From: Psammoneis japonica
Lineage: Eukaryota
NCBI GenBank assembly: GCA_008632985.1
Contig: QPGO01000116.1
Location: forward strand, 186,001-250,000
Direction: 5' to 3'
Length of the DNA stretch: 64,000 nt
A program made the translations under genes and the position numbers. Of this stretch, positions 1,701 through 60,879 are shown in pieces. The stretch's first letter is position 1, and each line of letters starts with the position of its first letter. The notes under the pieces are model-generated. The model was not told the origin of the DNA. It saw nothing but the letters and a program-made list of their open reading frames with translations, and ran no database searches.

Positions 1701-1914
1701 GGTTGCTCACAATTCCATCGGTCATCTGAAAAAAAATGAGCTGCGCGTCGCCGCAGGATTTGTTGATATCGGTCATTGAATACATTTCATGACAGTTTAT
1801 ATCTTATTGGGATAAATAATGTGGCTGGCCAATTATTTGGGTTGATTTTTTGGTATATATTAGTATTCTTATACTTTTAATATACTCTCGACGGTTACAC
1901 GGAGCACTCGACTT

Positions 1915-4900
1915 GTTCGACTCAGTTTTCAAACATTGTTGGGTTTGGCGTTGGGTCATGGGTCATCACACACATCATTCATCATCAGCAATTCAATTCA
2001 AACTCTTAAAACCGACAACAATCTCAGGCATGCCTGATTGTCCTTTCAAGGCACAACTGTGGACAGGGTCAGAGCGTCTGCACATGTCCATTGCAATTTG
2101 TTTGATTTCCTTGGTTTTTCTGTCTTTCCATTTTCCTCCACTTGCTTTTGACACTTTTGCACTTGTGTCTTGCACTTTTCCCAAGTTTGCTTGAAATGCA
2201 ACCTTTTTTGCAATTTCAACAAAACACAGCTGCTTTTGGACTGCATGGATTGGCCCCATTCCTGCTGCTGCTGCTGCCCGGTGGGAGGGGGGGGCAAGAG
2301 CCTCTTGTTGTGCTTCCAGCGATGCAGCGATGGGGCAGCCAAAGCAGTGGTCGCCAAAACAAGGTGGCAAATGTTGCATTTCTTTTGTGGGCAACAGCAG
2401 CTTTGCAACATTCTCTTGTTCTGTCACTTTTGTGTGTGGGAGGCACATGATGCTGCGCACAAAATCTCTTTTTCTGCTTTGGTGTTGTTGCTCCTCTTTT
2501 GCCTCACACACCCAGCAGGCAATGAAAACGAAGATGTGCTGCAAAAGCCCTGCTGTCAAAATCATGAGCTGGTTCATTGTGAAAGTGGAGTCATGCGAAT
2601 GGGAAATCATGCCAAATTCCTGCTTGTTGTGTGGATTGTGTGGGGGGCTTTGGAGTGAATGTGTGTTCTTCCTTTTCGGGCCAAGCTCAACACATCACAC
2701 GAAGGTCCTTTGCACCATTTTGGCACACCAATGTCACAGGGTGAGGTGTTGCCTTCAGAAAGTGAGTTGGCAAACCAGGGTGCATTGCACCACAAATGGC
2801 GCATTGCTGTTGTGAAGAGGTGAGCAGCACTTGGCAAAATCTGAAGGAAGAATGATGGAGCCATGCAGCTCAACCAACTTTCTTGATGCATCTCAAAAGT
2901 GCACACCTCTTGTGGTTGTGGCCAACTTGTGGAGAAGCACGCCAAAACTTGAGAAATGTCAAGAAGAAAATGGAGGCAAAGAACGAATGGCCCTGACCTG
3001 GTTTTGATGATCATGCTGCCAGCTTCTTGTCTGTTGTGTTTGACCCCCCTCCTCTGCTCAAGCAATGACTCAATTGTGACATCATCCACATGTGCACATG
3101 TCACCTGAATGGCACAAGGCCATCTTCTTGACTCATTGCTTGTCACAATCATTTCAACACCAGGTGGCTACAAAAGTTTTGAAAGGTCTTTGCTTGTCCA
3201 AAATCTTCTCAACTCATTGCAGGTCACAAGAATCATTCCCACACCATGTGATCACAAAAGTTTCAAAAGGTCTCAGCTTGTCCCAAATCATTTTCTCATG
3301 CATGGGCCAGTCTTCAAAGCATGTGTGCTTGTGTGGACTCTTCTTCTCACCCTTTTTCTTGACAATTCCCACAATCTTGTTCACGGAATCTTCATCAACA
3401 TGGAAAAGCCATTGTTTGGAAGGTGGGCAACCAACATCTTCATCAAGGTGCCAGCTTTGGAGGCACAAGTCTTGAAAAATGCTCACAGCTCCAGGCAAGA
3501 CTGTCCATCTCATGCTGGAAAGCACACTTTGGTGATTTTTGGAGCATTTGGATGACAGAGGAGGAAAACATGAAAAACATGAGAAATGCAAAGAGCCCAG
3601 ATGTGTTGAAGAAAAGACACACTGTGGCACCTGACATGGCTCATTTGGCAGCTCATTGAGAGCAAGCTTTCACCACCACCAATCTCTCACATTTTAGTTT
3701 CACCTCACTCTTTGGAGTGAATCATTTGGTTTGTCATTTGGCATCACTGTGGGTGCCTGTTGCATCACAAGTTTGAAGTTCACATTGATGACTTCTTCTT
3801 GGCAACCCATGGCTGTTGCAACTGACCAAGGCACAAGTGTGTCAAGCAGCACAGGAAGCCCAACAGGACTTCCTTTTGGAAAAATTGACTTGCCAGCTCA
3901 GCACTCACTCCAAACAATCACCGGCACAATGAGTGTCAGAGTCATGGTTGCAAAATCCCAATGTGTTTTTGATGCAGTTGCATGAAGAGCTTCATTTGAT
4001 TGGCTCAGTTTTCAAACACTGGGTTTGGTTGGCATTGGGTTGTTGGCAGCAGCTCAGCTCACAATGTCAAAACTTGCAACAAGCTTGTCACACCTGATGT
4101 CCTTTCAATCCACAACTGTGAAAAGGGTCAGAGCATCTGCACATGTCTGCACTTGAAGTTCTTGTGTTGTTGTTGCTCTTGTCCCCCAGCATTTGTTGTG
4201 TGCTTTCAACAGCTGCTCAGGGCAATCAGCTTGACAAACTCAGTTTTCAAACATTGGTTTGGTCAGTGTTGGGTCATCATCATCAGCACGTTCAACCATG
4301 TTTGTGTGCGTGTGCGTGTGCCTCACTCTCGCATGTTGAACAAACACCGTGACAGAGGGAGGTGCCCCAGGTGGCAGGCAGCAGAGGCTGCCTGGGTTTG
4401 TTGTTTTTTCTTGCAGCACAATTGGCTGCTTTGTCAAGAACCACAGTTGGGCTTTTCACCAAAAAGAGGAAACAGAAAGCAGCAAATCAAGAAAAATGCC
4501 AAGAAAAAGACCTCAAAAGCCCAGCACCCCTCTTCTTCTTTTTCTCTGTGTGGCATGCAAAAAAATGTGACCAAGGGCAGTGACCAAATGGCAAAAACCA
4601 AACAGCCAACTCCTTTGTGGAAATCTCATGCACTGCATTTTTCTGACCTCTTGGCATCTCCCACTTGCTTTCTAGAGCACAAGCCATTGGGGTCTGGCTG
4701 CCTGGTGGAAATCTGGATTTTTTTAACTCTGCAACCTGTGTGTGTTTTTGGCATGCTGCCAAGCACAATCTAAGAATTGACCCTTTCCAAACAAAAGCAA
4801 CCTGCACACTGTCATTCCCTTGACTTTCTGTTGGATGAGCACACTGATTTCTGCAGCTGGCTTTGTGGGTGTCTGTGCTCCTGGCAAATGCATGGCAACT

Positions 4901-5200
4901 CTGTTGGCTTTCTTGGGTTTTTTATCTTTTTTGTTTCCTGCCAACATTTGACAAACATTGACCCACCCACAGCTTTGTTTTTGTGCCCTGCACTTTGCCA
5001 AAGTTTGCTCACAGCAGCACTGTTTTTGTTTGCAACTTTGACAAAACACTGCTGCTTGCCAGGGGTGGGACAAAGCTGCACAAAAGAATGCACACACAAA
5101 GAAAATTGGCCCATGTTGCATCTCTTTCATGTGCAACAGCAGCTTTCTGACACTCTCGTTCTGGCACATCTGTGTGTGGGATGTACACAGCATCTGCAGC
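1915..5200 (+). repeat. Dispersed diverged repeat family inside block A
   Basis: ctcagttttcaaaca..ggg recurs at about 1921, 4004 and 4239. cctga(t)tgtcctttcaa..cacaactgtg..agggtcagagc.tctgcacatgtc occurs at about 2032 and 4094. atgttgcat.tcttt..gcaacagcagcttt..tgtgtgtggga occurs at about 2371 and 5113. Confidence 0.7.
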
Positions 5201-6528
5201 ATGTTTTTTTGTGCTTGGCAAGAAGATCAATTGACAAGAAACAAAGTTTTCACACACCTGTGATTGCACTCTCCACAGGTGCAACAATTTTTCAAAAATC
5301 AAACAAGGTGGCAACTGCAGCTGCAACTCTGAAGAATGATGTTTGACACTTGCTCATTTTCAGTCACAAATCTGTCATTGCTGAAGCCATCAACCAGGTT
5401 GACAGTCAATTTCTCCAGCAGTCATGGATTTGCAATGTTTTGTTTTGTGGCCCAGCATCTTGTTGAGAGCTCAGTTGACTCACATTTGTTTGGAAGAGCT
5501 TCTTCAGCTTGGTTGCACCAATCCGCTGCTTGCGTGATGATGGTGCACCCCCCTGTTGCAGATGCACCCCAGCCACACATGAACCAAAACATGCACAAAA
5601 AGGCACTTGTGTGATTTTAGAATGGTCTCTGACTTGCAAACCAACTTTTGCCACCAAAGGCATGGGGACTTGTCCAAATTTTAATGTTTTGCAACACCAA
5701 CAAGACTCGTGTCACAGTGTTGCAATGTCATTGTTTTTGTGCGATCAATGTGTTTCATTGCAAAAAACTGGTTGCAACACAACAGATGATTTTTGCCAAA
5801 TTTTTTGAAGATTCACACACCACTGCTGTTTGAAGGTCAATGCAAAACATTTTTCTGTGCATTTTGCGGTGGCAATCCAGCACTCACAAAAAAATTCTCT
5901 GTGGCATGAGTGCCAATGCACAGTTGGCATTGTTTCCGCAGAAAATTTTCACGACACACATTTGATGAAGACTTGAGCACCAATGAAAAAAATGTTCAAA
6001 TGTCCACACTCTTGTCAAGTGCAAAAGCCAGAGTGCACTGGTGTGTGTCCACTGTCTGTGTTGCTCTTCCTTGTTGCTCTGTGAGCACACAAGCTTTTGT
6101 CTCTTGCAGAAGATTGCACAGGGTTGTTCAGATGCTGTGCTTCTTGTGGAAGTGCCGACACCAATTTGCTTGTTGGAGAGAAGGGTGGGCACTCCCCATG
6201 ACCTGACTCCAGGACCCAGACTTGCATGAGTGGGAGTTGCAGCCAAGGCCCCGGAGACAGAAAACTTGTTTGTTGTTGAGGTTTTGCACAGAGGTGAGGG
6301 TGTTGTCAACAAGATTGGCCATGAAGACTCACTTGACAACTGGCAGCAGGAAAGCTTGACAAAGGAAAAATGTGCAGCATGCAAGAGCCAACAAAGCTCA
6401 ATTTCACATTTCTGGCTTGCACCCCCCCAACCAATGCTCCCACGAGACCCACTCTTGCTTGAACTTTTCAGATCACCATGAAATGGAAGATGGCTTGCTT
6501 GTTCATTGCAGTTTTTTGTTGCTTCCTG

Positions 6529-6730
6529 GAAAGTTGACAAAGCTGACAAAGTTGACAAAGTTCATCAAAGCTGACAAAGTTGCCAAAGTTGACAAACTCA
6601 CCAAAGTTGACAAAATCAACAAAGTTGCCAAAGTTGAAAAAATCACCAAAAGTTGACAAAGTCACCAAAACTGACAATTTTGCCAAAGTTGACAGATTTG
6701 CTGAAGTTGACAAAGCTGACAAAGTTGTCA
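6529..6730 (+). repeat. 9-bp minisatellite (consensus AAAGTTGAC), about 20 imperfect units
   Basis: Directly visible: aagttgacaa agctgacaaa gttgacaaag ttcatcaaag ctgacaaagt tgccaaagtt gac... Confidence 0.9.
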
Positions 6731-6764
6731 TTCAGCAACCAAACCTTTGAGTGAGTCACTCTGG

Positions 6765-8545
6765 AGTTGGAAAAGTCAAGTCTGCTGTTGTCAAGAACAA
6801 GGTGATGCTCAACCGCCATTCTCAAAGTGTCGCCTGGCTGGGATCCAGCACCCTGCTGCTGTTGTGGGCAAGGTGACAAGGGGCACAACAATGCCACAAG
6901 ATCGACCTTGCAATGCTCAACCACTGTTCTCAAAGTCTTGCAGGAGATTCGCCAGAGACCACCAGTGCCCTCAGAGTGCTGTTGCCATGGTGGTTGGCAC
7001 CATCGTGACGACCCTGCAGCTTGAGAGCAAAGCCTGCACAGCACAGCTTTCCGTGAACTGCAGCTTTTGTGCAAAACCTGCACCCCGCAGCTTTGTGCAC
7101 CCTGCATCTTTTAAGCAAAACCTGTGCCATGTAGCTTTCTGTGCTGCACAGCTTTTGTGCAAAACCTGCACCCCACAGCTTTCTTTGTGAAGCTGCAGTT
7201 TTTGTGCAAAACCTGCACCCGGCAGCTTTTGTGCAAAACCTGTGACCCAAGTTGAGAAAGTCAAGTCTGCTGCTGTCAAGGACAAGAAGGTGGCATGGGG
7301 CCACAATGCCACAAGATCAACTTTGCAATGCCCAGCCACAGTCCTTGAAGTGTTGCCAGGGATCCTCCAGAGACCGCCCGTGCCCTCAGGTTGCAGCCCT
7401 CAGGTTGGCTATGGCACTGCCCTGTCAGGCAGCTTTTTGTGCTGCACAGCTTTTGTGCAAAACCTGCACCCCACAGCTTTGTGCACTCCACAGCTTTCTT
7501 TTTGAAGCCGCAGTTTTTGTGCAACAAAACCTGCACCCCACAGCTTTTGTGCAAAACCTGCGCCCCAAGTTGAGAAAGCCAAGTCTGCTGCTGTTGAGGA
7601 CAAGGTGGCATGGGGCCACAACACCACAAGATCAACCTTGCAATGCCCAACCACACAGCCCTTGAAGTGTTGCCCCAGGGATCCTCCAGAGACTGCCACA
7701 ATGCCCTCAGCTTGCAGCCCTCAGATTGGCTGGCACTGTCATGGGGTCCTTTCACAGTGGAGAGTTTCAAAGCTCAAAAGTTTGCTCAACACCACAAGAT
7801 CAACCTTGCAATGGTGCTCAACCACAGCCCTTCAAATCTTGCCAGGGGGTCCACCAGACACCACCAGTGTTGTCCTTGGCCTGCTGTTGTCAGGTTGGCT
7901 GGCACTGTCATGGTGTCCTTTCACTGCAGAGTTTGGAAGCTCAAGCATGCTCAACACCACAAGATCAACCTTGCACAGTTTTTTTAAAGTCTTGCTGGGG
8001 GTTCACCAGATGCCACCAGTGTCCTCAGCTTGCTGTTGTTGGGTTGGTTGGTGCTGTCATGGGGTCCTTTCACTCTTGAGTTTAGAAGCTTAAATCTGCT
8101 GCTGTCAGGGACAAGGTGACATGGGGCCACAATGCCACAAGGTCAACCTTGCAATGCTCAGCCACCACTCTTAAAGTCTCACAGGAGGTCCACACCAGAG
8201 ACCACCAATGCCCTCAGCTTGCAGCTGTCAGATTGGCTGGGATGCCATCATGGAGCCCTTCTTCTTTCATTTTGGAGCTCTTGTTGTGAGTTTGAAGTGA
8301 GCTTCTGGCTGGGAGGATGTGACAGGCTGCTGGAACAGCACAACACACTAGCCTCACATTGTGAAATGCTCAACCACAGTTCTTGAAGTGTTGCCTGGGG
8401 TCCACCACCAGAGACCACCGGTGCCCCCAGCCTGCTGTTGCTTGTTGTGTTGGTTGGTGCCTTCACAGGGCCATTTCACTCTGAGAAGCTTGGGAGTTCA
8501 AGTCTGCACCCACCTGCTGGGCACAAGGCAACATGGGGCCACAGC
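6765..8545 (+). repeat. Degenerate complex tandem array (units about 165-420 bp) with nested sub-repeat CAGCTTTTGTGCAAAACCTGCACCCC
   Basis: The core cacaagatcaaccttgcaatg recurs at about 6895, 7311, 7625, 7793, 7958 and 8136. The sub-repeat occurs several times in 7060-7250 and 7447-7567. Confidence 0.85.
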
Positions 8546-11107
8546 AGCACATGACCACAACATGATTGGCATGGGCAACCACCACCTTGTTGGGGAGAAG
8601 GAATGTTGGCAGGAGGTGCTGCAGCTGCAGTGGTGCCCCCAGGGCTGTTGCTCCTCTGGCTCTTTGTGGTGGGCACATCACACTCTGGCTTGACCAACTC
8701 TCTTTCCATGACACCACCTGCTGCATGGCCAACTCCACAACCTCTTCTGACCTCCTGCCTGCAAGGTTTGACCATGATGAGAGTGCATCAGCAGCAAAGG
8801 TTGTTTTGTGCATGAGCCATTTGTGGGTCAGTTGCAAGATCATCAGCAGCAGCAGCCCTGTGCAGACACAAACAACAAACAAACTCCACAGGCTGGCACA
8901 AATGTGAAAATTTCATTCTTGGCAAGAGCCAACTGAGATGACAAAACTGACTTCTCTGACACAAAAACAATGTCAAACATCCAGCTGCTTGACAAATGTG
9001 AGTTTACAAGCAAAAGGCACTGGTTGTGAAAACCAACAAAATGATTTACTTGAGCTGACTCAAACAACCCAAAGTGACACCAAATGAGTGCAACAAAAGG
9101 CTTTTTTCTTAAAAAATGACCACTTGCAAAATGACACAGGCTGTGATCACCAGGCTGGCTAGCTCAGCTCCCACTGTGCCACTCAAAACAACACAAAAAC
9201 ACAGGGTGTGCCCAAGCAGTGCACAAACAAAAATGGCACTGCAGGAAAGCACCAACAAAACCCAGAGCTCTGTGCAGCACACCAACAAAGAAAAGCCATG
9301 GACAGGGCAAGAGGTCAGATGCTTTCATGCTTTCTGCATTTTTTGAAACTCGGTTGAGCCAACAAAAATGGTCAAAGACAAGAAACACAGTGCCGCAACA
9401 TTGTGCATGCAGGCAAGCAGGAACAGCAGCATTGTGCCACCCCAAAGCCAAAGAAAACATGCCAAGCTGACAACTTCTCTGCTGTCTTCTGCCAGGGATT
9501 CCTGTGGCATCTCACAAGGAAGGGCTGTCACAAAAACCAACTCTGTTTGAAACACACAAAATGTTGAAACACAGTGCAATGCCTGTGCAGCTAAGAACAC
9601 CAAGATGTGATGCAGGCTGCCAGAGAGACAATGGGGAGCAGAGGCTTGGGCCCATTCCCACCCCAATGATTGTGGCTGCAAAATTTTGTTCTGCACAAAA
9701 TTCCTGCAGCAACTCTTGCACAAGAAGAGCTGCATGTCTGTTTTTTTATCCATGTCAATTTGCAGCCACAATTGTCAGCAAATTGTGATGACAGACATCA
9801 GTCATCACAAATTCTCTTCCACAAGTGCAGTTTTCATCACAAATGTTTGGCATTTTTGGGAGCTCAAGCATGTCACGTCACAAGTTCTCCCATTTTTCTT
9901 TCTCTAATCCACGCAACCTTCAAGGCTGCTGCCGTGAATGGACCCATCAATGCACAAACAACTCCTCTGTCCACAAAGACAAGAATGCAAAGACATGTGA
10001 ATGAGGCTGTGCTTGATGCAACCAAGTTGTCAGAATTTTGATTTGTTGTTGTTGTTGTGGCTTGCAATGAACATGTTGACCAACAGCGCCATTTTTGATG
10101 TCTTCGTTTCTCTTGTTCAGATTTTGCACTGGGATTTTTCACAAACAATCTGTCTGCATGATGAGACTGTGTGATCTGATGTCACATTGAGGTGGTTCTT
10201 TGGTGTGCACTCCAGGTTTTCTTTTGACAGATGGTCAAGAGTCAAAGAGCACAACAATTTTGATCACACCACACTGCCACCAACAACAAGGCTTTCTGCC
10301 TTGCTGCTGCTCTTTGCTTTCTCTTTCACACAGAACTTTTTTGGGGTGTGGGGGGCATGACATGCCATGTGCTGGCTTGCTGAAAAGAAGCAAAAAAAAA
10401 GACAGCAGTTCTTCAAAAATAGAGCTCTTCCTTCCACTCTCTTGTGTGAAAATGCTTGTGAGAAATGAGGGCCAGAAACATCTTATTCTCTAACGCCATC
10501 CGTTGAGGAAGGAGGTTATTTACCGTTACAAGTTGTCATAAGTAAACAAAAAGCGATGATACTCCGAAAATTTTGCTTGTCTTCGCATTTCTAATGATAA
10601 TAAACGAGATCTTATAATTATATATTGAATAAGTATATATTCATGATCATATACATGTCAATGAAGATAACGGCGTCGGAACTTCACGCGGCAAACATTG
10701 GCACTTGGATGGGACTTCACAGCACGCAAAAATGAAACAAACCATCGAGGCGAGTCGGAGACTGGCACTAAACGATCTCGGCAATACAACGCACTGCTGT
10801 TTAGGGAGAGACAACATCCTTGTCATTCAAAGAACTGCTGTAAGAGTATCTGGTTGAAAGCAGAGAAAGAAGAAGGAGAAAAGAGCGAAAGAAAAAGGAG
10901 AGATAATCGAACTTTACAACTCGGTAATTTTGGCGAGTCGACATGCTAGGCAAGATTTAGGCTTTTTTATCGGTCGCTCTTGTCACGTCGAAAAGCGTCG
11001 AAACGCTCTAGGCCTCGCTTTGAGACTTTAAGGACTTACTGGGCTTGATTTTATCCTTATACATACAAACTTATCGAGATTATTGTGGTCCTAAGTCCTA
11101 ACAGCAT

Positions 11108-18231: not shown

Positions 18232-18429
18232 TGCAATTGTTGAGCAGTAGGCACGTTGGCACTGCACCGAAATTGGATTTAAAGGAAACGTACCACACTT
18301 GAACTTTTTGCGTAGTGCTTCTTTGAAATACGCGTTTCGATTTTGTTCGCCGTCCCGTAGTGAGCGTGCGGTGACAACGTGACGCGACACCCGAATTGCT
18401 TGAAAGCTAATGTCATCAGTTCGTAGCCG

Positions 18430-37700: not shown

Positions 37701-37707
37701 TGCTGCG

Positions 37708-42136: not shown

Positions 42137-42311
42137 GGTGTTGCCGCTTTTGTTTTTGTCGTTCGCATCGGTTGGGGGGGCGGCCAGGCGCTGACGGTGG
42201 GGAGAAGGCAAGGTAGGATCAGTTCGACTAGAATCACGCGAAATTTCGCGCGGTACAATATTCGAGCTCTCGGCACCTCGCACACTGAAAACAATACACA
42301 GGCAGCCCACC

Positions 42312-45437: not shown

Positions 45438-45500
45438 CCGCTATCAGTCTTATAGCTGCATTCAGCTTGTAAACGTTTCTCGCACATTCACACAACTACA

Positions 45501-47489: not shown

Positions 47490-48168
47490 GGCTAAGAAAA
47501 TTCAGCTATCGTGGGAAGTTGCGTTTCTGCAGCAACAACGAAAATTCAGACGAGTACATCAAGGCATGTGAAATGGGACCGAGAGGAGGAGTCGTCGTCG
47601 TCGAGTGATGACAACAACTCCTGTTTTGTGTTTGATGATGGTGCAGAAAGTTTGGCAAGTTCTCTCGAGGCTTGGGCTGAATTCAAATTGCTTTATGCTA
47701 CCTTAAAATACTCATAATGTATAAGATATAAATAATATTCCACTAATGAGGAAAAAGAGCAAGTGAATTGTAATCATAATTATATATGGATATTGATTTT
47801 GTATTCGTACAGTAATAATAAAATATTGGCATAATTTGACTACATACACCCGAAGGCACTGACACACTGACAAGGTCACAAATTTCGAGCATGGCATGAC
47901 GGAAGATGAAGCGAAAGAAGGCAACTTGTCTCTAATAGCAACTTCAAACTGCGTTGGAAATGAGATTTTCAGCGGAGTCGCTGCGTTGCTAATGGAAACC
48001 ACGAAGCGGCACACGATCACAATACAGTATACAGTCAATAGGAATCGACATAGCCGACACAGGCTTCAGAAAAGTGCCGGGATTGAAACACTGCTGAATA
48101 AGAAGCCACAGGTAAGAACACGGAAAGAATACTGCTAGAAATTATTAGCGCATCTTTATACCAGTTTC

Positions 48169-49212: not shown

Positions 49213-49588
49213 AATTCTTACACGTCGTGAGCAATCAAGGTCTTGTTGCCGTGATTTTTAACTTTTGAGATGAATGGCCCTTGCTTGGAGCTGCCGTGGT
49301 GGACAAAGTTGAGGTTTTATGGGAATGCCAAGGAGTTCATCGAACTTCCTCTGTGACAAACTTCAATGCATGTCTGAGAACCACGACTAAACGCGGTGAC
49401 CCAAGTAAGACCCAAAATACGCGTTTTCTCCCTGTCCGTCGATCCGTTTTTCTTTTAGTTCGCGGATGCTTGATTCGCAGTTCGCGGATGCGATGGCTAT
49501 GGAAGTCATCATTTGACCATTCTCAAGAGTAGGATCCTTCCATCGACTGAAGAGATGACTGATGTTGGAATCCGGTTCATATCAACGA

Positions 49589-51852
49589 GTGAACCCAGAC
49601 TCGAGCAGCGCCTTTTCTGCCGTAAATGCTGACAAGATTGTCTTTGCCATCGCCACTGAAGTCGCCAACCAACCACTTTTGACTGTCCCAGAAGCTCAAA
49701 GAGATGACTGAAATTCAAATCTGTTTCCTGTTGGTGAACCCAGGCTCAAGCTGTGAAGCCACAGAAGTCACCAACAAACACTTCTCAGCCTGTCCCAGAA
49801 GTCTGCTGTTGTGTCTGGAAAGATGACCTGCAGTTGAATCTGCTTGCCATGAAGAATTGAAACCAGATTTAAGACATGTCATCTTGTGGGACACCAATCA
49901 TGTCACAGGCTGCATGGATGTCATCATCCTCATGACCTTGTCTGATGCAAATGTTGGCATCAGCAAAGCACTTCATTTCTTCAAAGTCGAAAGATCGCAC
50001 AAGAGACACTTGGTTTGACGCAGCAAGTTGTCTTGGTTGCTGCTTTCAAAGATTTGTCAAAGCCAAATGGGCTGCAGGAAAATTTGAGGAAGTCTTGCCT
50101 CTGGGGAGTGCAACCCCTGCGTTGCACTTGCAGAGCAAGCAACGCCAAATTTGCAAAGTGTCAGAGCTCTGGTGGATTTTGCAGTTGTCGGCAAACCCAG
50201 TGTGACAGCTGGCCCTGTTCCAAAGGGCTTTTCTGCTTGCAGTGCTTGGCACACAGGCTTGCTTGCCTGATGACCATGCATGCCAGCTCTGGAGGCACAT
50301 CCTTCCTGACAATTGGCAGCCCAGAAGCCACAGCACAGCTCTGCGCTTCATTCAAAAAGTGCCAGATGTGCCACGGCAAGCAAGGCCAGGTGTGTCTCCT
50401 GCATGATGTCATTTCATGTTTCCAACCAGAAAGGCGGAGGGGGCGCAGTGCTCAAAGGTGCCAGACTTGCTGGAGCAGCAACTGCAGACAAGAACAAGCA
50501 GCACCCAACAGCACAAGGGGAGAGGACAATGACTTGCCACTTCCATTTTGGCGTTTCATTTTGAGCTCCACTCCAAAAAAATGCAATGTTGTGGCATGTG
50601 ACCTGGTGACCTCTCTGGGCGTCAAAGCTTGACATGATTTTTTTTGGGAAAAAAGCTGCAAGACAGAACCAGTCAACAGGATTGTCACAAGCACCGTCAG
50701 TTGCTTCTCACAGCCAGCGTTGATCTTGTCAGCACTGGGGCTGACAGACAGGCAGCTGCAGCTTTGGCTGCAACAACAATTGCGCCAAGTTCCAGCAGCA
50801 CATTGTGCAGACTTTTGGGCAGTGCTGCAAGGTCACCTGTTCCTTGTTGTGCTGGAAAAGAGCACATTGTTGTGTTGGAGAGATGTCTGCTTCTGCACAC
50901 CAAAGTGCCTGTGCCATTGGTGGCCGCACATGCACAGCCACAAGCCCACAAGGGTGCCCTCAAGCAACTTTTTTTCTGTCTTGAACTTGTGATTGCTAAA
51001 GATCAGTGACAACAACGGCGCACCATTGTGGCTTTTTTGGAAATGCTGCCTTCCAAGACAAATTTGTGGTTGCTGATGACAGCAAGAACAACCTTGCCAA
51101 TCTCTTGTCATTCACGTGCATCATGGCCAAAGTGGTGCCACCCATTTTCGTGCCATTGTGCACCTTGTTTTCCAAGCAAATGTGCAACCTGCCTTTGTGA
51201 TCATCTTTGAAAATCTTGTGGGAGTTGAAGAGTGATCTTTTCTTGTCTCACTTGTGGCACCAAATTCATGCATGACAATTTCCTTGAGCATCTCGCTGGA
51301 TGCAAGCATCAACCTGCGGGCCCACCCCTGCTTTGTCTGCTGCAACTTTTCCCCAAAATGCCTTGACAGTGATGCAGTTTCCATTTGAGACAAGTGTCAC
51401 AGCCAAAACCAAAGGAAGAAACCAGTGCTTGAACTTGTTTGCCTTTAGTTTTTGTGGTGGATTGATGAACAATTCAGCAAAAATGCATCAGCTTGTTCCT
51501 TTTCCCGTGTGTGAACCCCACCTTGTTTTTTTTTGGAGTGGAACAGTCTCTTCTTTCTTGAAATCAAGTCACATCATGCCAGCAAACATTGTTGAACATT
51601 GTGGTCATTCAATGAACAAGAAAGAACAACAGATTATCTTGCCACAATTGAACAAATGAACAATGTTCACAGTGTTTCAAGCTTGTCGAATGGACCCGCT
51701 CAACAAACAGATTTCGTTTCACAAAAACAACAGAAGAATCAATTGTCTTGACACAACTGAAAAACAATGAATGTATGTTCTCCTTGAATGGCCAGAAAAT
51801 GAAGTAGTGCCTTCTGCTCAATCACTCGACGTTCTCTCGAGTCCCGGTGCAC
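49589..51852. mobile_element. Block D: TpA/CpG-depleted degenerate element bounded by imperfect 17-bp inverted repeats
   Basis: gtgaacccagactcgag (49589-49605) versus the reverse complement of 51836-51852, gtgcaccgggactcgag (14/17 identical). The interior is TA-poor. No transposase was recognised. Confidence 0.5.
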
Positions 51853-52047
51853 AGGTGAGTTGGCAACTGTTGTTGTCCTAGGATCAGCTTTGTACTGTAT
51901 GAATGAGTTATGCTATTGCCACAACCTTATCTCCGCCTCATCTCGAAGCGTAGCCTCACGCTACCTCAAACTCACATGAATAAAGAATGCTACATTAGAA
52001 AGAACATGATTAAGCTACTTCTACTTCAACACGCTACCAGCCCATCA

Positions 52048-53484
52048 TTACGTCGAGCCATTCTCGTTGGATTGTAGGGAGATTTGCTGTTTCTTCATGT
52101 ATTCCGAAACCATCTCATTGGATGGCTGGTGATTGGGTTGCTTTTTCAGATATTCCGAGATCAGCTGTGCACATCGTTCGCGAGAAACATTCGTGAAGCG
52201 CTGAATGATTTCGACGGCATTATTCGCAAAGTACGAGAGTGGAATGTATCCCACCATGTCCTTGTCCATGGCAAAGTACACTTCTCCAACTTCGGAGCTT
52301 TCCACTCCGAGTGGCGAAAGAAGTTTGAACAAAGCACAAAAGGTGACAGTGTTGGGAGGCGCATCTCGTCCCAACCGCCGCAAGTCGCGAAAGGGGCACA
52401 TGCAATCCGGATCGTCGTCGCTGCTATCTTGATCACTCTCCGTTTCGGACGACACGGTTGTGGCTGTGAGCAAGCTATCCACACGGAATACTTTGGCAAC
52501 TTCGCCTTTGCGATGCCGATGGTGTTGATCCTTGTGAAGCAAACTCACGCCCTCCAGGATTTCATCGACTGTACTTGCAGGATCCGGCTCCTTGACGCGA
52601 CCAATAATCCGAGCAGGGGCTCCCACCGCTGTGGCACCCGACGGAATAGATCTTAGCACAATGCTGCCAGCTCCAATCTTTGCGTTGTCGCCAACATGAA
52701 TATTACCAAGGATACAGGCACCCGCCCCCACCAAAACGTGTGCGCCGATTTTTGGATGCCGATCACCGGAATCTTTTCCCGTGCCACCAAGAGTTACACC
52801 ATGAAGCAGGGTACATCCATCTCCCAGAACGGCGGTTTCTCCAATCACAACACCTGTGCCGTGGTCCAGCAAGACTCCAGCCCCAATCTGCGCCGCAGGA
52901 TGAATGTCAACTCCAAAGACGGCTGATGCCTGTGACTGGAAGAAGAAGGAGAGCATGCTCCTCTTTTTCTGAGCAAGCTTTTTTAGATACAAATGCCTCG
53001 CCGCCCGATGACACACCAACGATGCAAATCCCTTGAAGAAGAGCACCACTTCCAGTATCGTCTGACAGGCTGGATCGCGATTTAGAACGGCCAGTGCATC
53101 CTTACGAACCGCCTCGCCCATGGTATGGCCCAGTTCTAGATATTCTAGAGCCTCACTCGTCTCGTCCAGAGCTGACGAAATAATATTTCGGACGGTCTCC
53201 AGAGAGCAACAGGTACCAGTGGTACCATTGAGCAGACGATATGCAATCGTGGTGGCAACCGCATCGTCAAACGTTTCCACGTGAGGAGCTAGAACGGTCT
53301 GATCTAGCAGATACTGTAGCTCCGGCTCATTCTCGAGGGCCTGCAAAGCTTCATTGCGCAGCTGTTGGGACATGTCAGTTGTGGAAGTTCCGTTCATTTC
53401 TTCGTTATCAGAGGTTACACTTATGACAGGTGAAGCGTGTAAGAGGGGAGTCGCAATCGCAACGCCGTTGGTTGCGGCCATCAT
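52048..53484 (-). CDS. cysE: Serine O-acetyltransferase with C-terminal extension
   Basis: RDPAC..LFFKGF, FGVDIHPAAQIG, DHGTGVVIGETA and GVTLGGTGKDSGDRHPKIG hexapeptide domain. Confidence 0.95.
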   Translation of the reverse strand: MMAATNGVAIATPLLHASPVISVTSDNEEMNGTSTTDMSQQLRNEALQALENEPELQYLLDQTVLAPHVETFDDAVATTIAYRLLNGTTGTCCSLETVRNIISSALDETSEALEYLELGHTMGEAVRKDALAVLNRDPACQTILEVVLFFKGFASLVCHRAARHLYLKKLAQKKRSMLSFFFQSQASAVFGVDIHPAAQIGAGVLLDHGTGVVIGETAVLGDGCTLLHGVTLGGTGKDSGDRHPKIGAHVLVGAGACILGNIHVGDNAKIGAGSIVLRSIPSGATAVGAPARIIGRVKEPDPASTVDEILEGVSLLHKDQHHRHRKGEVAKVFRVDSLLTATTVSSETESDQDSSDDDPDCMCPFRDLRRLGRDAPPNTVTFCALFKLLSPLGVESSEVGEVYFAMDKDMVGYIPLSYFANNAVEIIQRFTNVSRERCAQLISEYLKKQPNHQPSNEMVSEYMKKQQISLQSNENGST

Positions 53485-53642
53485 GGTTGATTATTTCTTT
53501 CTTGCGTTGCCTGCAGAGCAGACATGACCGAAGATGAAATCTTTCCATGCGCGCGAACATTTTCGACGACCGTCGAACGCGCACTCCGTCGTGTAGATAC
53601 AGACAAAAACAAACCACGGACGCACAAGCAAATCGACAATGC

Positions 53643-54451
53643 AAGATGCTCTGTGATTTTTGAACCCTTCGACTGTCGCGATGCCAGTCCAAAATGCAAG
53701 AAAACAGCATGAAGACTAAGTGCAAAGGTTGATGGTCCAAGACACTGACATCTTTTCAGACCATTCAATCAAGGTTTTTGTCTCCCCTCCATGCTCCTCC
53801 GAGTTTGTTCAAAGCCCAGCACATCGCAGTGCACCTGGGTGCCCTCAGAGTGCGTGCACGCCCTTCTCTCGCGAGAGGAAAAAGAGCTGCTTTTTTCCAA
53901 GGAGAGCACAACTTGTGTTTCACCTCTCAACAACAACAGCACCACAGGTTGAGTCAAACACAGCCAAAGCACAGCCTCAGAGGAGGATGGGGCAAGAAAG
54001 AAAATTCTCTCTCTCGAGCGGCAAACATGCTCTCTCAAGATGAGCCAAAGATGCTCTGTGATTTTTGAACCCTTCGACTGCCATGATGCCAGCAGCCCAA
54101 AACACAAGAAAACAGCATGAAGGCTCCCTGCAATGGTTGATGGTGCAAGACACTGACATCTTTTCAGACCACCAGTCAATCAAGGTTTTTGTCTCCCCTT
54201 CATGCTGCTCCTCCTCTCCGAGTTTGTTCAAAGCCCAGCATGTCGCAGCACACCTGGGTGTCCTCAGAGTGCGTGCACACCCTTCTCTTGTGAGAGGAGA
54301 GAGAGCTGCTTTGGAAAACACAACTTGCGTTTCACCTCTCAACAACAACAGCACCACAGATTGAATCAAACACAGCCAAAGCACAGCCTCAGAGGAGGAT
54401 GGGGCAAGAAAGAAAATTCTCTCTTGAGCGGCAGACATGCTCTCTTAAGAT
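53643..54451 (+). repeat. Tandem duplication of ~405 bp (about 53643-54040 and 54047-54451) upstream of the SAT gene, followed by a 20-G run
   Basis: aagatgctctgtgatttttgaacccttcgactg...ggggcaagaaag(a)aaattctctct..gagcggca.acatgctctct.aagatg is present twice. Confidence 0.92.
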
Positions 54452-54479
54452 GGTGGGGGGGGGGGGGGGGGGGGCAGCT

Positions 54480-57400
54480 CTCCTCATTCTGAAATGCACC
54501 AGCTCTCTGCACACACCAGTTGATTTGACAGTGTTTTTGTCAAGCCACTGGGCTTTTTTGCAAACTTTTTTTGCGCTGACATTCATGCAGAAACACGACT
54601 GCAAAGAAAAACAAAGCTTTCCTGTCTCACAGAGGTTGGTGCTGGTGCTTTAAACTGCCATCTGCAGACATTGTGCCACTTGCAGCTCACCTCTGCTGGT
54701 GCAGACAGATCTTCAAATGAGAGACTTTTGAACGAATCACAAGGTTTTTGGTGCATTCATGTGTGTTGTGCACCATGTTTAGCGCCAAACCCATGCAAGA
54801 AGATTGAGCTCCTAAATGAAGATGAGCCAACAGCCATCATGACCAAGGCAAGAATGCAAAAATTCCAAAAAACAGGTTGACAAGGCTGCATTCCATGTGT
54901 GGTCATTTGGCTGAAATTTGAGTTTGGTCTTTTTCTTTGTCTTGTGGAGAGCTCGCTGATTTTTGCTTGTGTTTGGTGTCACTCTTTCTCTCTCCTTCAG
55001 ATTGTTCAGCAGCTCTTTTCACAGTGCTTGTCTCTGTCAACTTGGTGCCAGCTGCAAACAACAACAACAACAGGAGCATCTCAATGAGGTGCACTTGCAC
55101 ACTTTTTGCACGGTGTTGTTGTGGACGATGCCTTGCAAGCACACATCAATTTTTTTTTTGCAAACAAAAGAGACACTCTCTGCACTCAGTGTTTTGAGAG
55201 TGCATGGCAGCCAGCCAAAATGCCCGCAGGCAAGTGCAAAAAGTGTGCCCAACATTGCAAGCCAGGGTGACAAGAACATTGGCAATGTTCTGGTGTTGTG
55301 GCCATTTTGCTTCACTTTGAGGCAGCAGAACTTCTTCTTGTCCAAGCAATGAAATTTGTCAACATTTTGTCACCACCTCTTCTGCCACCTTTTGTGTTGA
55401 ACAGCTGCTCTGCAGTCAACAATCTTTTCTTCTGTGCCAGTGTGCAACTCACTCAAGACTCCACCACACAGGACAGTGAACAACTTGATCTTTCTGACAG
55501 CCAGCAGCAAACAAAAAAGAGGCAAGTCAGCTTCCCCAATTTTTCTGCCCAAACAAGTGCAGTCAGAAGGTTGCTCTTTTGCATCTGAGCTTTTTGTTGC
55601 ACTGTGAAAAATGTCAGCATTTTTTGTCAAACAACAGCTGGGCATGGTGGAAGAAACAGAAAAAAAGTGGCTCAAAGAGGCAGCAAAAACAGCCGCACAC
55701 AACAGAGTTTCCTGTCAAGTTGTTCTCAGAAAAAATGACTGCCTTTTGAAGATTTTTCATCATTTGTTGTCCACACTGCCCAAGAAATGAGAATGATGGC
55801 CAGCACTTCAAAGAGAGCAGACTTGAGGAAAGAAGCAACAGAAATTGGGCAGAAGCCCACTCAAACTTGCTCACACAACATGCGTCAGCAGCATCACACT
55901 GTCTCCAACCAGCTCTGTTGAGATTCACTCTTCTGGCAACCATTTCAGAGCTGCCTCAGTCCTCCAAGGTCTGATCCTGAGGGCAAAATGGACAAGCTTG
56001 TTGTCACAACACTTTCTAAAAGTCAAAGAAGAATGACGACTGCTTCTGCAGCAGTCCACATGCTTCACGTGGAGCACATGAGTGCTGATGCACATGCCCT
56101 CTTTGCACCATCTAATTTCAGTGCTTGAGCCTTTAAATCTTGATTTCCAAAACACTCCTGTTGACCAATGACAAGATCCTTGCCAGACTCCAATGTGCCA
56201 TCTTGGGGTTGGGGGGTTGGCCTCTTCTTGCTGCATTGTGTGCCCTGGAGCTCCCCTTGCTCAAATGCCCAGCAGAGTTTCTCTGGATGCACATTTGCAA
56301 AAACATGTTGGCTTGGTGATCACTGTGCTGCAGTGCCCTCTTTCTCATTCTTTTTGTGCATGCTGAAAAAGAAAGAGGTGTGCTGATCTCATTCTCAGCT
56401 GTCTAGCATGATTTTGCCACTCTCCAAAATGAACACTCTCCAAAAAGAACAACCTCTTGTTTTGCTTTGCTCAACCTTTGTTTTGTTTTGCTCAATGAAA
56501 AAATCATCTCATGATGTGTGTGAGAGACTCTTTTTGCAGCTCCACTGCAAGACAGGGGCACTCCAGAATGAAAAGTCAAACATGACCCACTGTCAAACAA
56601 AGCAAGCATGCTTGTGAGTGACACATCATGTTTTTGTCAGTGCTGGTGCTGGCTGCATTTCAGCAGATGTTGACAAGTTTAAGTTGTCTTGTGTGTCCTC
56701 CATTGTGCTTGGTTTGACAATTTTTGATCCAGTGGGCTGTTGACTTGCACTTGGCACAAGTGAGCAACTCATGGCTGTTGTCCTTTTTTCATTGACAAAG
56801 ACTGCACCCCAAAGCCCCCAACTCACCCTGATGGCAAGTGTGCCAGTGCCAGCAAAAATCTCACAAAAGAGCACCAGTCACTGCACATGTTTCTGTGTGG
56901 CTTTTTAAAAGCAGCCAAGCAGTGGGTGCCTCAGTGCAACTGAACTCTCAGATGCCCCCCTGGCTGATGCCCCACCTGCTTCTCAACTTTTTTTTTTGTG
57001 TTGGCTGGCAGGCTTTTGCTCACAGTTGTTCAAAAAGAAAATGAGGTGTCACCTCTCCAGGTGGTTGGCTGGTCAGATTTGGCAAAGTCTCCTCACTTTG
57101 GCAAGCTGAGAATCTGGACATCCCATTGGCAACTTTGAGCACTTTGGACCACCACATCCTGGTGACTTGAGGCCAAATCTTGGGCTCACCCTTCACACCA
57201 AGTTTGCTGCACCACACATTGTCGCTGCCCAAAAAGCCACAAATTTTCATGGTGCTTGATGTCACAACTTGAAATTGCACCCAATGCAGTGCACAGTGCA
57301 CACAACAAACAATGCCACATCTTCTGCTGTGGGGCTTGTTTTTTGTTCATGTGTTCTTGGTTGTCACATCATTGATCAAGGTGCAAGTGATGTTTTGCAA

Positions 57401-58100
57401 CAACAAGATGGTGGTTGACTTGAGGGTGGCCATGTTGGATTTCTTGTTGCTGCTGACCATCATGCAATGTTTGGACATGCTGGATGCTGGCAAGCAGTGG
57501 CATGCTTTGCAAACTTTTGCAGCACTCTCATGACTGTGGCACACTTGAGTTTACAGCCACTGGGGGTTTGTTGCCACCATTGATGGCACTGTCTGCATCT
57601 GCAACATTTTCAGTTTCCAAGTGTGAGGCAGTCATTGTGTGGACAATGTGCCACACATGATTTTCAGCAAGGAGCAGTGGAAATGGGCAGCAGCGGTGGG
57701 CCTTGCAGCGCTGAGCCAAAATGTTCACAGTCATGGTTGCCCTTCCTTGTTGCACCCACATGTTGTTTGTGCAGCACTTTTTTTTTGCCAGCTGGCTGCC
57801 CCTCTTGCAGGAGTCTGCTGTGCCAGAGCTGCTGCCCTGGCTGGTGATTGGCCACCCAGTGCTGTGTGTTCATCACATCTGTGGCCACCCCTCTTGCAGA
57901 AATCTGCTGTGCCAAAACAAACTTCACCAGGAGGGTTGGGGTCTTGCAGCAGTGTGCAAGATGTGTGCTCATTGCATCCATGGTGTGGTGCCAAAGCCAC
58001 TTTTGGCTTTTGTTTCAAATGTGCTGCTCACTGGACAGTGGATTTTTTGATCTTCCACTGGTGCATGTCCTGCCACATGCATTGCAGCTCTTGACTGCTT
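54480..58100. mobile_element. Middle of block E: strongly TpA/CpG-depleted degenerate sequence, unassigned
   Basis: Composition only; no recognisable domain. Confidence 0.4.
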
Positions 58101-60010
58101 TCTTCTGTTTTTTTTCTCTTCTTTTGGTTTTGTCTCGGGAGTGAGGTTTTTGTTAGAATGATTGGGGTCTGTGGTGTTGGAAGAGGTTGGTCTGGGGAAA
58201 TGTGTGGTGGGAGGGGTGTGCGAAGCGCGCTTGGGGATGGAGAGAAAAAGGGTGGGCCCAAAGTGCAGACAGATGGTTGAAGTGAGGAGTTGTCAGCAAG
58301 GGCAGGATGGCGAAGTGGCTGAGCTTGGCAAGAAGAGAGATGGTGGGAGAGAGCACAGCCAAAGTTGAGGCTGAGGATTTGAGAGGCCCAGAGTTGAGGT
58401 GTGACGGTGTGACAAGAGGAGCCAAAGTGGTCTGGGGAAAGTTGTTTCCAGGCCATGTCAGAGTGGGTGAGGAGGTTGGAAGGGGCAAGCAGTGAATTGG
58501 CAAAGGCAGAGAAGGATGCTTGAGAGTTGGAGAAGGAGGATGGGTTTGTCCAGGGTGTGGTTTGGGAGGAAGGGGTGGGATGGAGGCGGATGTTGAAGAG
58601 GAGGAGCCAAAGAAAAAGACGTGAAAATGGTGCCCAATGCTGCCCAGGTGGTCAAATGTAAAAGGGAGGAGGAAGAGTCCAGCTTGTTTGATGGCATCAA
58701 TGACACATCAGAGCTGGGGGCAGATTGTGCAGAGCAACCAAGAAGCTTGTCCCGTGTGCTGCTGAGGTGAACCTTGTTTGGTGGGTTTTCAGGGACAGGC
58801 AACCGGGTGCAGGAAGTGGGGGAGCTGGTGGTGCGGTGACATCAACAGCCAAGAAGTGATGAGTGGACAGATGGGGCGTTGGGTGGTGTGGAGCCAGGAG
58901 TGAGTTGAGCGCTGATGTCAGCAGGGCATTGAGGGGTGGTCAGCTGGGAGACCTGCTGGTTCAAGGTGGGCTTGTTGGTGGGAGAGGCACAGGCCACAAA
59001 GGGGGGCCCAGGGTGTCAATGATGGTGTGGATGGTGTCACAAACATGGTTGGACAGCGGGCTTTTGTGCATTTTGGAGCATGCAAAGGCGCGGTCACCGA
59101 AAGGGTCAGGGCGGGCGTGGCCACATGGGCAGTCATGTTGGAGCAAAGCAGAGGAGATCATTGGGAGGCACAGCTTGCAGAGGAGAAGGAGTGTGAAAAG
59201 GTGTGATGGAAGTTGGTTGGCAGCAGAGGATCGGGAGGGAGAGTGCAGGCAAAGGCTTGTCAGAGGAGACAGAAGGGGTGGAAGGGCTGGTTGTGTGGAA
59301 GGATCAGCAAGGATCAGAGGAAGGGTGTTGGTTTTGTGGTGGTGCAAATGAAGGTGTTGTGCAAGACTGCACAGGTCATGGTGTTTGATGGCATGCTTGA
59401 GAGAGGCAAAGGAGGGGGAGTCAAAACGGAGGAGAATGGGAGCACAGTGAAGGAAGATGCGGCAGAGGGAGGAGAGGGTGGAGCGCGGGTTGGACCATGA
59501 GCTAAGAGAGGCAGAACAGCTCAGAGGGAGGTGAAAGACGTCACCACCATTGAGTGGGATGCCATGCTTTGTGCAGCACATTGATTTTGTCAGAGAGGTG
59601 ATGAGAGCTGGGGTGGCGATGGCGGAGATGTCGCGACATCCGACACCGCCTGAAGGAGCGGGCAGGTTGGCGATGAGTTTGGCAGCTGAGGGGAAAGGGG
59701 GAGAGTGTTGAGCAAGGCAAGCAAGGAAATGCAAGGAATGGCCAATGATTTTGTTGACAAAAGGCAATGCCCATTGGAAAGGGGGGTTGAGAGATCGTTG
59801 GAGTGCGCGAGGTTGAAGCACGCATCAGCCACGAGGATGTGGGTGGCAGAAGGGATGGAGCATTTCTGGAAGAGGGTGCTTTGTGTTTGTTCATTGGTGA
59901 GGCGGTTGGCGAGGTGTCGGAGGTCTGAGGCAAAGGATGTGGCTTTGTCTTGAATGAAGTTTGCTGTGGCAGAGTCGCAGTCATGTGCTCTCCTGCCTGC
60001 GACTCCCGAC
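58100..60010 (-). mobile_element. 5'-truncated, degenerate CRE-like non-LTR retrotransposon (post-RT region, Zn knuckle, restriction-like endonuclease)
   Basis: LIANLPAPSGGVGCRD, CPCG..DPFGDRAFAC..HKSPLSNHVCD, EPAGL, PADI-like, FLAVDVT and LLPFTFDHLGSIG occur in the order typical of CRE-clade RLE elements. An A-rich tail lies on the minus strand at about 58100-58130. Confidence 0.82.
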
Positions 60011-60879
60011 AAAAAAAGCGGGGGCCCAGTTTTTGGAATGCGTCATCACACTGCCTGTTAAACCTAGAGGATCACACCCCACAGTGTAGGGCCCTGGGTT
60101 AAACCATCATCATGCAATCTGTTGCACACATTAAACTGCAGTCTGCTCCAGCTGGGCACATGGACAGGCCTTTTGTTGCACGCAAGAAGGAGAGTGAGTG
60201 GGATCTTGTCTGAGAACTCTTGTTTGATTCTCATTGAACAAGTTCCTCAGGAGAGAAAAGACTCGTCTGCAGCATATGGCAGGCGCATCATCCTCCATGG
60301 CACATTCGTTCAATGGCATCTTCTTGAAATGGATGGTGTCTGCCATTGCGGTTCGTTTGCGTGCACTGTGTGTGCTGCACTGTGCACGCACCATGCGCTC
60401 GTCGTGGTCCGTCTGCGTGGTGCGGCACGTAGCACTTGGTACGTCCTAAGTGGCTCATAACCCACCTCGCCAGACAAAATAAACTGGGGAGCCCCAGCTC
60501 CCGCCTAAACCCATAAGCCTACTGGTGGGCCGATTGATTGATTCCCAGATTGTCGAAAGAGTTCGCCAAACCGTTAAATCTATATATCTTTTATACATTG
60601 CTAATGATTGACGTTAACTCGACGGACTCGATTTCCGCGAAAGGGCGACAAGCCAAAGCGACAAGCGACATTACATCGCTCACAAACTCGCAAAAAAAGC
60701 ACACACACACGAATATCCACCAAGGCCACAACGTGGTAGGCGGGAATAAAGCGAACAACGCGGAGCTCCAACGGCAAATAAGAACCTGCCGACTGTCGAG
60801 AACCGAGAAACTCCTGCCAACAGTCGTAAGCCACAAAGGGCCAAGTGGACTAGACGAGAAGAAGAAAAGTAGTGTGACG

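Follow-up and report, generated by a model that had tools for sequence, protein, structure and literature searches.

Five TpA-depleted blocks in a contig of the diatom Psammoneis japonica: the probable footprint of a targeted A:T to G:C hypermutation

We analyzed a 64,000-nt stretch of the Psammoneis japonica contig QPGO01000116.1 (hereafter, the window), in which five blocks, numbered here from left to right (Table 1), have lost nearly all of their TpA dinucleotides and are rich in TpG and CpA. These blocks are a real footprint and not an assembly artefact. According to our preferred explanation, to which we assign a probability of roughly 0.75, they are silent non-coding domains in which a local, targeted activity has converted one A:T pair of nearly every TpA to G:C, turning TpA into TpG or CpA. 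The change is TpA-specific, and it affects the two strands to the same extent, at individual sites and not in strand-coordinated runs. The targeting is positional, with sharp domain edges that bear no relation to the limits of a duplicated gene segment in block 3. Furthermore, CpG decays to TpG and CpA in the same domains but lags behind, such that TA loss occurs without CG loss and never the converse.

Dinucleotide composition is expressed throughout as the ratio of observed to expected counts (o/e). In 1-kb sliding windows, TA o/e falls from approximately 0.4-0.8 in ordinary DNA to 0.00-0.10 within the five blocks, while TG+CA o/e rises from approximately 1.0-1.3 to 1.5-2.07. The pooled blocks comprise 24,480 bp (38% of the window) and hold 94 TA (o/e 0.06), 396 CG (0.27), 2683 TG (1.67), and 2602 CA (1.80), compared with 1530 TA (0.56) and 2180 CG (0.98), and o/e values of 1.15 for TG and 1.18 for CA, in the 39,520 bp of non-block DNA. 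At the background of the window itself, approximately 904 TA would be expected in the pooled blocks (Poisson p approximately 1e-261). An earlier note on this DNA had described five TA-poor blocks flooded with TG and CA, and both the composition and the coordinates that it gave are borne out. Among individual blocks, TA o/e ranges from 0.03 to 0.14 and CG o/e from 0.12 to 0.69. Block edges are sharp to within approximately 100 bp except for three fuzzy ones (block 2 left, block 3 right, and block 5 right). The left edge of block 1 illustrates this, with TA only a few bases apart as far as position 1896, one at 2007, and no further one before 3169. In the blocks, AT o/e is also lowered to 0.70 and GC o/e raised to 1.23, probably as side effects, which would be expected of A-to-G changes at TpA (TAT to TGT, TAC to TGC).

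The direction of mutation could be read from a dead partial gene copy in block 3 and its intact parent, which lies in normal DNA, keeps TA and CG, and thus provides an unmutated reference. In the pairwise alignment, the 23 parental TpA correspond in the relic to CA (11), TG (9), other dinucleotides (2), and a single retained TA, while the 41 parental CpG have become TG (14), CA (14), or other dinucleotides (4), with 9 kept as CG. Counted per strand in well-aligned columns, A-to-G changes hit 17 of 34 sites at TpA, compared with 10/93 at ApA, 5/84 at CpA, and 5/70 at GpA, that is, 20/247 at all other A (Fisher p 1.4e-8); each of the 17 well-aligned TpA dinucleotides changed exactly once. Similarly, C-to-T changes were concentrated at CpG (26/61) relative to other contexts (9/184; Fisher p 2e-11). 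A site once changed is no longer TpA, and hence the process runs to exhaustion. Read in the frame of the gene, all three tyrosine codons of the relic have become His or Cys, as expected from the earlier claim that tyrosine codons are destroyed, and two CGA codons have become TGA stops. In addition, the relic has accumulated indels and further substitutions of the sort seen in genuine pseudogenes.

Along the relic, the two outcomes at TpA are interleaved (9 TG and 11 CA over 0.7 kb, with no runs), and the TG share remains close to 0.5 in nearly every 500-bp bin of the blocks (chi2/df 1.65 versus 2.56 in normal DNA). Strand-coordinated mutation clusters of the type left on single-stranded DNA were seen neither along the relic nor in the 500-bp bins. 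Such interleaving on both strands argues against a processive single-strand deaminase and rules out a single edited RNA or cDNA strand. Consequently, we regard as scarcely credible an origin of the blocks as retro-copies, produced by RNA-level A-to-I hyper-editing (through an ADAR- or ADAT-like enzyme with a 5'-U preference) followed by reverse transcription and integration. The 5'-T/U preference of the A-to-G changes, together with the weaker one for 5'-A (10/93), does resemble that of RNA adenosine deaminases. Nevertheless, one edited strand cannot give A-to-G and T-to-C changes within a few bases of each other, the relic takes in the upstream non-coding region of its parent, repeat copies within blocks have changed independently, and no reverse-transcriptase remnant was found by Pfam among 255 block open reading frames (ORFs).

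Repeat copies inside the blocks offered a second view of the same changes. Of 52 adjacent double mismatches in nine intra-block repeat pairs (blocks 1, 3, and 5), 21 were CA<->TG swaps, as against 1 of 26 in two pairs from normal DNA; three of the nine pairs have one partner in common and are therefore non-independent. These swaps match what would be predicted if an ancestral TA or CG had been resolved independently in each copy. The CA<->TG swap is also the commonest double mismatch among copies of the 6530-8543 repeats of block 1, and the two 412-bp copies at the left end of block 5 differ by 28 transitions, 5 transversions, and 3 such double swaps. Together with the paralog pair, the swaps support the earlier proposal of a second, domain-restricted A:T to G:C process that acts at TpA beside CpG decay. 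They also bear on a possible origin of the blocks by insertion of foreign or mobile DNA that had neither TA nor CG to begin with and simply brought its composition along. Blocks 1, 2, 4, and 5 have no recognisable homolog giving the ancestral state, and the edges are insertion-like in their sharpness, as such an origin would have it. Against this, the host-gene fragment in block 3 has lost TA and CG relative to its parent, the swaps in blocks 1, 3, and 5 indicate independent resolution of ancestral TA or CG in place, and the five blocks are unlike in sequence and termini yet carry an identical signature. We therefore consider a native TA-free insert very unlikely.

The blocks are also present in sequencing reads. 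Contigs of two runs from one sample, X1 and X2, were placed on positions 34001-54000 at 80% likeness. One X1 contig of 14,125 bp (word depth 56.2) covers 39432-53527, and hence block 4 in full, and departs from the window at 26 letters and 35 gaps. Within this one contig, the depth of block 4 (56) equals that of the flanking genes, and thus block 4 is physically linked, single-copy host DNA. Reads restoring TA had been named in the earlier note as the finding that would overturn the observation, which survives, as the X1 contigs carry the TA-free sequence. Nor are the reads a restatement of the assembly, because contigs from both X1 and X2 contain three insertions that the window lacks (1 nt, 14 nt, and 1 nt, at 40429-40431 and 41972). 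These insertions fall in the region of gene 39655-41349, whose reading frame they would change, and have their source in either a misassembly or allelic variation. One contig of X2 lacks 96 nt bounded by GT..AG (45262-45359), a spliced intron in the gene at approximately 43884-45281, and by this joint X2 behaves as an RNA run; X2 does not cover blocks 3 and 4 and was not used as evidence of their silence.

An artefact, in which modified bases were systematically miscalled in long reads and carried into the consensus, is in our view extremely unlikely. The window does differ from X1 and X2 by small indels, as many long-read assemblies do; the blocks are probably methylated, and the platform of X1 is not recorded. 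Nevertheless, an artefactual block 4 would need roughly 200 differences from the X1 contig instead of 26, as estimated from approximately 9 TA+CG per 100 bp in normal DNA, and the accuracy of the reads is indicated by long X1 contigs (up to 315 kb) and by 31-mers that are clean at depth 56. In block 3, applying the 40 of 222 X1 differences that were listed restores neither dinucleotide (TA 34 to 34, CG 176 to 174). These differences include TA<->CA, TA<->TG, CG<->TG, and CA<->TG swaps, the one possible hint here of mutation accumulating de novo. The indels and other substitutions of the relic likewise speak for true pseudogene decay. No error mode known to us would replace approximately 90% of the TA, and as much of the CG, by TG and CA in equal shares.

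Within block 3, X1 contigs over 35700-38100 are short (222-594 bp) and approximately 1-5% unlike the window, mostly by transitions, compared with 0.2% across 39432-53527, and CA<->TG double swaps between X1 and the window occur at 35988-9, 36676-7, and 37443-6. Possible reasons are an unusual degree of polymorphism in block 3 or the placement of paralogous copies at the 80% threshold.

A point not emphasised in the earlier note is that CpG, too, is depleted in the blocks, although more weakly and later than TpA. In block 3, TA is depleted and CG mostly retained over 36000-38700, where the three 1-kb windows that begin at 36001, 37001, and 38001 combine a TA o/e of 0.10-0.29 with a CG o/e of 0.79-0.88. 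Across the 64 windows of 1 kb, the two ratios are correlated (Spearman rho 0.71), with five windows combining TA<0.3 with CG>0.7 and none combining CG<0.5 with TA>0.4. Given that TA-depleted windows that keep CG exist and the reverse is absent, TpA loss is the faster process. This difference in tempo matters for the question of whether any dedicated system is involved, as TpA loss might be a passive by-product of silent chromatin, for instance through a context-biased error-prone polymerase or repair, and so a bias and not a defence. Such a bias would suit the co-location of TA and CG loss, the want of recognisable foreign or transposable-element (TE) content, and the involvement of a host-gene fragment and single-copy DNA. 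On the other hand, TpA has been removed more fully than methylated CpG (o/e 0.03-0.05 versus 0.12-0.26) and earlier, which implies a rate above that of 5-methylcytosine deamination, and nothing comparable was seen at 65 environmental diatom loci. Moreover, the corresponding process in the alga Bigelowiella natans, as far as the accessible part of its description goes, runs at >1000-fold the background rate and only in some lines, which looks regulated (10.64898/2026.01.13.699255). On balance, we consider a passive bias unlikely.

Given that the earlier note had read the blocks as silenced or repetitive DNA holding TE relics, tandem repeats, and dead gene copies, we examined their content. Pfam searches of 30 ORFs of ≥150 aa, and then of 255 stop-to-stop block ORFs of ≥60 aa, gave only chance-level matches plus one protein-kinase fragment, and no TE or viral family at E<=0.05. 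A tblastn search of 1210 diatom ORFs against the blocks returned the known relic and two scraps at E approximately 3e-4 only, while the block-1 ORF at 4000-4770 had no relative of 141-450 aa among 5.8 billion proteins. Three-base periodicity is absent from the blocks (median score 1.24, 0 of 67 windows >4), compared with a median of 3.89 and 55 of 115 windows >4 in normal DNA and a score of 0.95 in shuffled sequence. Neither blastn nor tblastx found sequence similarity between blocks, and they have no common termini, terminal inverted repeats, or long terminal repeats. The blocks are therefore non-coding or fully decayed DNA, partly host-derived and, for at least one block, single-copy; some may be of foreign origin and decayed beyond recognition. 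Hence, the reading as TE relics is not supported, with no TE or viral match and no coding periodicity. Nor is that as repetitive DNA, as the blocks are unlike one another, block 4 is single-copy, and the duplicated segment has an intact parent that shows none of these changes. Tandem repeats are indeed present (e.g., the arrays at 6530-8543 and 53643-54452), and so are two dead gene copies, namely the relic of the paralog pair and the kinase fragment.

The mutated tract of block 3 extends to 38700, 3.3 kb past the end of homology at 35440, while the parent 4.6 kb away is unaffected. Together with the effect on single-copy block 4, this makes the targeting positional.

The preferred explanation would account for these features as follows. 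The cue for targeting would be the silenced, cytosine-methylated chromatin state that is also behind the CpG decay, from which the methylation itself is deduced. As the changes lie at interleaved sites of both DNA strands, the substrate must be genomic DNA, and the chemistry would be that of an enzyme that deaminates adenine in double-stranded DNA, preferably where a T lies 5' of it, to hypoxanthine, which the next replication then reads as G. A weak excess of A-to-G changes at ApA fits the neighbour ranking of adenosine deaminases. The activity is probably persistent or recent, because ordinary C-to-T change at the abundant CpA and TpG would otherwise rebuild TpA. Biologically, the effect would be an irreversible inactivation of domain content, through Tyr-to-His or Tyr-to-Cys replacements, CGA-to-TGA stops, and the loss of TA-containing signals. 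No gene for a polynucleotide adenosine deaminase lies within the 64-kb window.

The same phenomenon might instead proceed through thymine, with a TET/JBP-type hydroxylase making 5-hydroxymethyluracil (5hmU) or 5-formyluracil in silent DNA, and mispairing with G leading to T-to-C changes at TpA. 5-Formyluracil does mispair with G, and the sequence cannot separate T-to-C on one strand from A-to-G on the other. To our knowledge, neither a thymidine hydroxylase of this type nor its base has been reported in diatoms, and nothing in the window bears on a thymine-modifying enzyme. In dinoflagellates, another lineage of the SAR group (stramenopiles, alveolates, and rhizarians), TET/JBP thymidine hydroxylases that silence TEs have been described, as far as the accessible text of that study goes (PMC11572971). 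In the consulted portion of the base-resolution map of 5hmU in Breviolum minutum, the mark has no sequence motif, so that a TpA preference is not documented (PMC11071213). We consider the thymine route improbable. As a TpA-specific mark, 5hmU was considered and rejected for the same lack of a motif (PMC11071213).

Comparable domains were also sought in 65 environmental diatom loci (370 kb) found via the DUF6824 domain, which are gene-centred and mostly short contigs. None of their 1256 1-kb windows fell below a TA o/e of 0.36, whereas 85 of 253 did so below 0.2 in the present window; given this sampling, the absence is weak evidence. One of these loci, an 11.3-kb metagenome contig (L003), contains the joint-closest environmental relative of the DUF6824 domain of the window (70% identity). 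Its composition resembles the normal DNA of the window (GC 0.48, TA o/e 0.56, CG 1.04), and it has no TA-free window.

Several points weigh against the preferred explanation. The direct evidence on ancestral states is supplied by a single 0.7-kb relic in block 3, and for blocks 2 and 4, which have neither an outgroup nor an internal repeat, in-place mutation is presumed by analogy. TpA specificity is not absolute, as shown by the weak A-to-G excess at ApA (10/93, versus 3/84 in the reverse direction). The youngest tandem pairs have only 3 CA<->TG swaps in 391 aligned bp, fewer than full conversion after duplication would give, and thus much of the conversion predates the youngest duplications. 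In addition, a role in genome defence is a candidate reading, and no block holds a recognisable TE or viral remnant. With no such domain in the 65 environmental loci, either the process does not operate in diatoms at large, or metagenome contigs centred on genes fail to sample DNA of this kind. The X1 run, of unrecorded platform, may come from the source of the assembly itself and is then not fully independent. Lastly, we infer the enzyme, the DNA modification, and the chromatin state alike, and none of them was observed.

Table 1 Features of the window discussed in the text (positions are those of the window)
Feature	Position	Strand	Remarks
Block 1	1897-10483		TA o/e 0.04, CG 0.12, TG 1.83, CA 1.85; tandem arrays and short dispersed repeats
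Block 2	18425-21387		TA o/e 0.04, CG 0.20; left edge fuzzy to ~18800; one 1603-bp TA-free gap, the longest stretch without any TA
Block 3	34747-38700		TA o/e 0.14, CG 0.69; least advanced; right edge fuzzy from ~38250; holds both gene relics
Block 4	49624-51773		TA o/e 0.03, CG 0.26; single-copy
Block 5	53599-60429		TA o/e 0.05, CG 0.23; right edge fuzzy from ~60060
Tandem and dispersed repeat cluster	6530-8543		block 1
9-nt unit x ~22	6530-6727		block 1; consensus AAAGTTGAC, 65% matches; readable also as 64- and 82-nt units
44-nt unit x5	7014-7233		block 1
~300-nt units	7125-7738, further copies to 8543		block 1
Dead partial gene copy	34691-35440	+	block 3; 77% identical to parent; upstream region and first ~120 codons of gene 39655-41349
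Protein-kinase domain fragment	37711-38412	-	second host-gene relic in block 3; Pfam PF00069, E 3.4e-8, only profile positions 88-150 of 263
Intact parent segment	39322-40017	+	normal DNA; keeps TA and CG; unmutated reference; covered by run X2
Tandem duplication, 412 bp x2	53643-54452		left end of block 5; 86% identity

A compositional peculiarity of another kind was seen in block 5. Over 58100-60430, the plus strand is G-rich and C-poor, with 186-213 G and 51-91 C per 500 nt, a GC skew of up to 0.47, and a TG:CA ratio of 62:21 in one bin. This stretch is not explained by transitions, because A and T are near normal.

The genes flanking the blocks are ordinary diatom genes, including three DUF6824 genes and genes for a SET/JmjC protein, trigger factor, ubiquilin, RapGAP, and a serine acetyltransferase, the last of which has its best relatives in raphid pennate diatoms (55-65% identity). 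The DUF6824 genes (49-1455 on the minus strand, 11102-12958 on the plus strand, and 48169-49257 on the minus strand) directly adjoin blocks, on both sides of block 1 and to the left of block 4; this adjacency may be coincidental, as the gene family is large in diatoms. Two genes on the minus strand encode chromatin-type proteins, one with SET plus JmjC/cupin_8 domains (13024-15279) and one with an HMG-box plus a histone fold (CBFD_NFYB_HMF; 63038-63526).

The footprint has practical and wider consequences. Domains of this kind are without TAA and TAG stops, Tyr codons, and TATA or AATAAA signals, and will mislead gene finders and repeat annotators. The spatial tie to CpG decay makes a link with methylated silent chromatin probable and provides a testable targeting cue for a process able to act on single-copy and host-derived DNA. 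A natural TpA-specific editor of double-stranded DNA would be of interest both to genome-defence biology and to base-editing technology, and P. japonica adds a second genome for the comparative identification of the enzyme.

Among known systems, repeat-induced point mutation (RIP) of ascomycete fungi changes C:G to T:A, mostly CpA to TpA, thereby creating TpA; duplication is its trigger, and both copies are mutated as far as they are homologous. The footprint in P. japonica is like RIP in consisting of irreversible transitions in a dinucleotide context, which RIP places in silenced, cytosine-methylated tracts, and in destroying coding capacity. Its direction is the opposite. The changes here are A:T to G:C, TpA is depleted approximately tenfold, CpA and TpG are enriched, and C-to-T change at CpA affected only 4 of 82 sites in the relic. 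Unlike in RIP, moreover, the parent segment is intact, mutation carries on for 3.3 kb where homology has ended, and a single-copy block has been hit. Diatoms have been described as methylating CG in their silent DNA, at least in the accessible part of the report (PMC9998398), and decay of methyl-CpG by deamination of 5-methylcytosine accounts for the CG-to-TG/CA half of the pattern (28 of 41 CpG in the relic) and for its restriction to silent domains. It cannot remove TpA, the loss of which is here deeper and earlier than that of CpG. The adenosine deaminases ADAR, ADAT2/ADAT3, and TadA convert A to I that is read as G, and prefer a U or T 5' of the edited A, as stated in the consulted part of the B. 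natans preprint (10.64898/2026.01.13.699255). The neighbours rank in the same way in the relic, where T comes far ahead of A, which in turn equals or exceeds G and C. They differ in being known mainly as RNA enzymes, whereas here both DNA strands have changed at interleaved sites.

The closest parallel is that of the rhizarian B. natans (Mettrop et al., bioRxiv 10.64898/2026.01.13.699255), described here from the accessible part of the preprint. Of 302 new mutations in 15 mutation-accumulation lines, two integrated viral regions received 231, and 230 of these were A-to-G or T-to-C changes on TpA, at a rate of approximately 6e-7, more than 1000-fold above background and only in some lines; an ADAT2-like adenine deaminase was proposed as a candidate. 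Domain-restricted hypermutation of TpA to TpG or CpA was thus already on record in 2026, and the earlier description of the process as undescribed does not stand. As in B. natans, the changes in P. japonica are A to G and T to C at TpA, giving TpG and CpA (20 of 23 parental TpA), are confined to delimited regions beside normally mutating DNA, include a single-copy region, and leave clusters of 1-kb windows that are poor in TpA and rich in CpA+TpG. When the criteria of the preprint for such windows were applied, 20 of 64 windows qualified, with clusters of at least three windows at 2001-10000, 18001-21000, and 54001-60000, while blocks 3 and 4 gave runs of one and two windows. The two cases differ in several respects. 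The host here is a stramenopile diatom. The conversion is near saturation (TA o/e 0.03-0.14), whereas the region of nucleocytoplasmic large DNA virus (NCLDV) origin in B. natans has a Rho of 0.45, and the targets there carry recognisable NCLDV, virophage, or TE genes, whereas no foreign gene is recognisable here and a host gene fragment is affected. The B. natans mutations were caught de novo, while the diatom process is known from its footprint alone. Finally, CpG decays in the same domains of the diatom, and the preprint, in its accessible part, makes no mention of CpG, diatoms, or stramenopiles.

In the literature searched, we found no report of TpA hypermutation in a diatom, and the present footprint is the first of its kind seen in a stramenopile, acting on single-copy and host-derived DNA. 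It is possible, though doubtful, that a chromatin- or methylation-guided, TpA-erasing DNA editor forms an irreversible silencing system common to SAR lineages (diatom and chlorarachniophyte), with any stably silenced DNA as its substrate, be it single-copy or host-derived, and not only repeats and viruses. If so, comparing the gene content of carriers and non-carriers could reveal the first natural eukaryotic editor of adenine (or thymine) in double-stranded genomic DNA, as the footprint is saturated in this diatom and absent from the other diatom loci examined. Targeted A:T to G:C genomic hypermutation has been known from one 2026 preprint in one alga, and the diatom footprint implies that it is not peculiar to one rhizarian. 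By analogy with B. natans, as far as that process is described in the accessible text (10.64898/2026.01.13.699255), the P. japonica footprint appears to be the product of a process of like kind, which in this stramenopile has reached saturation and is spatially coupled with CpG decay.

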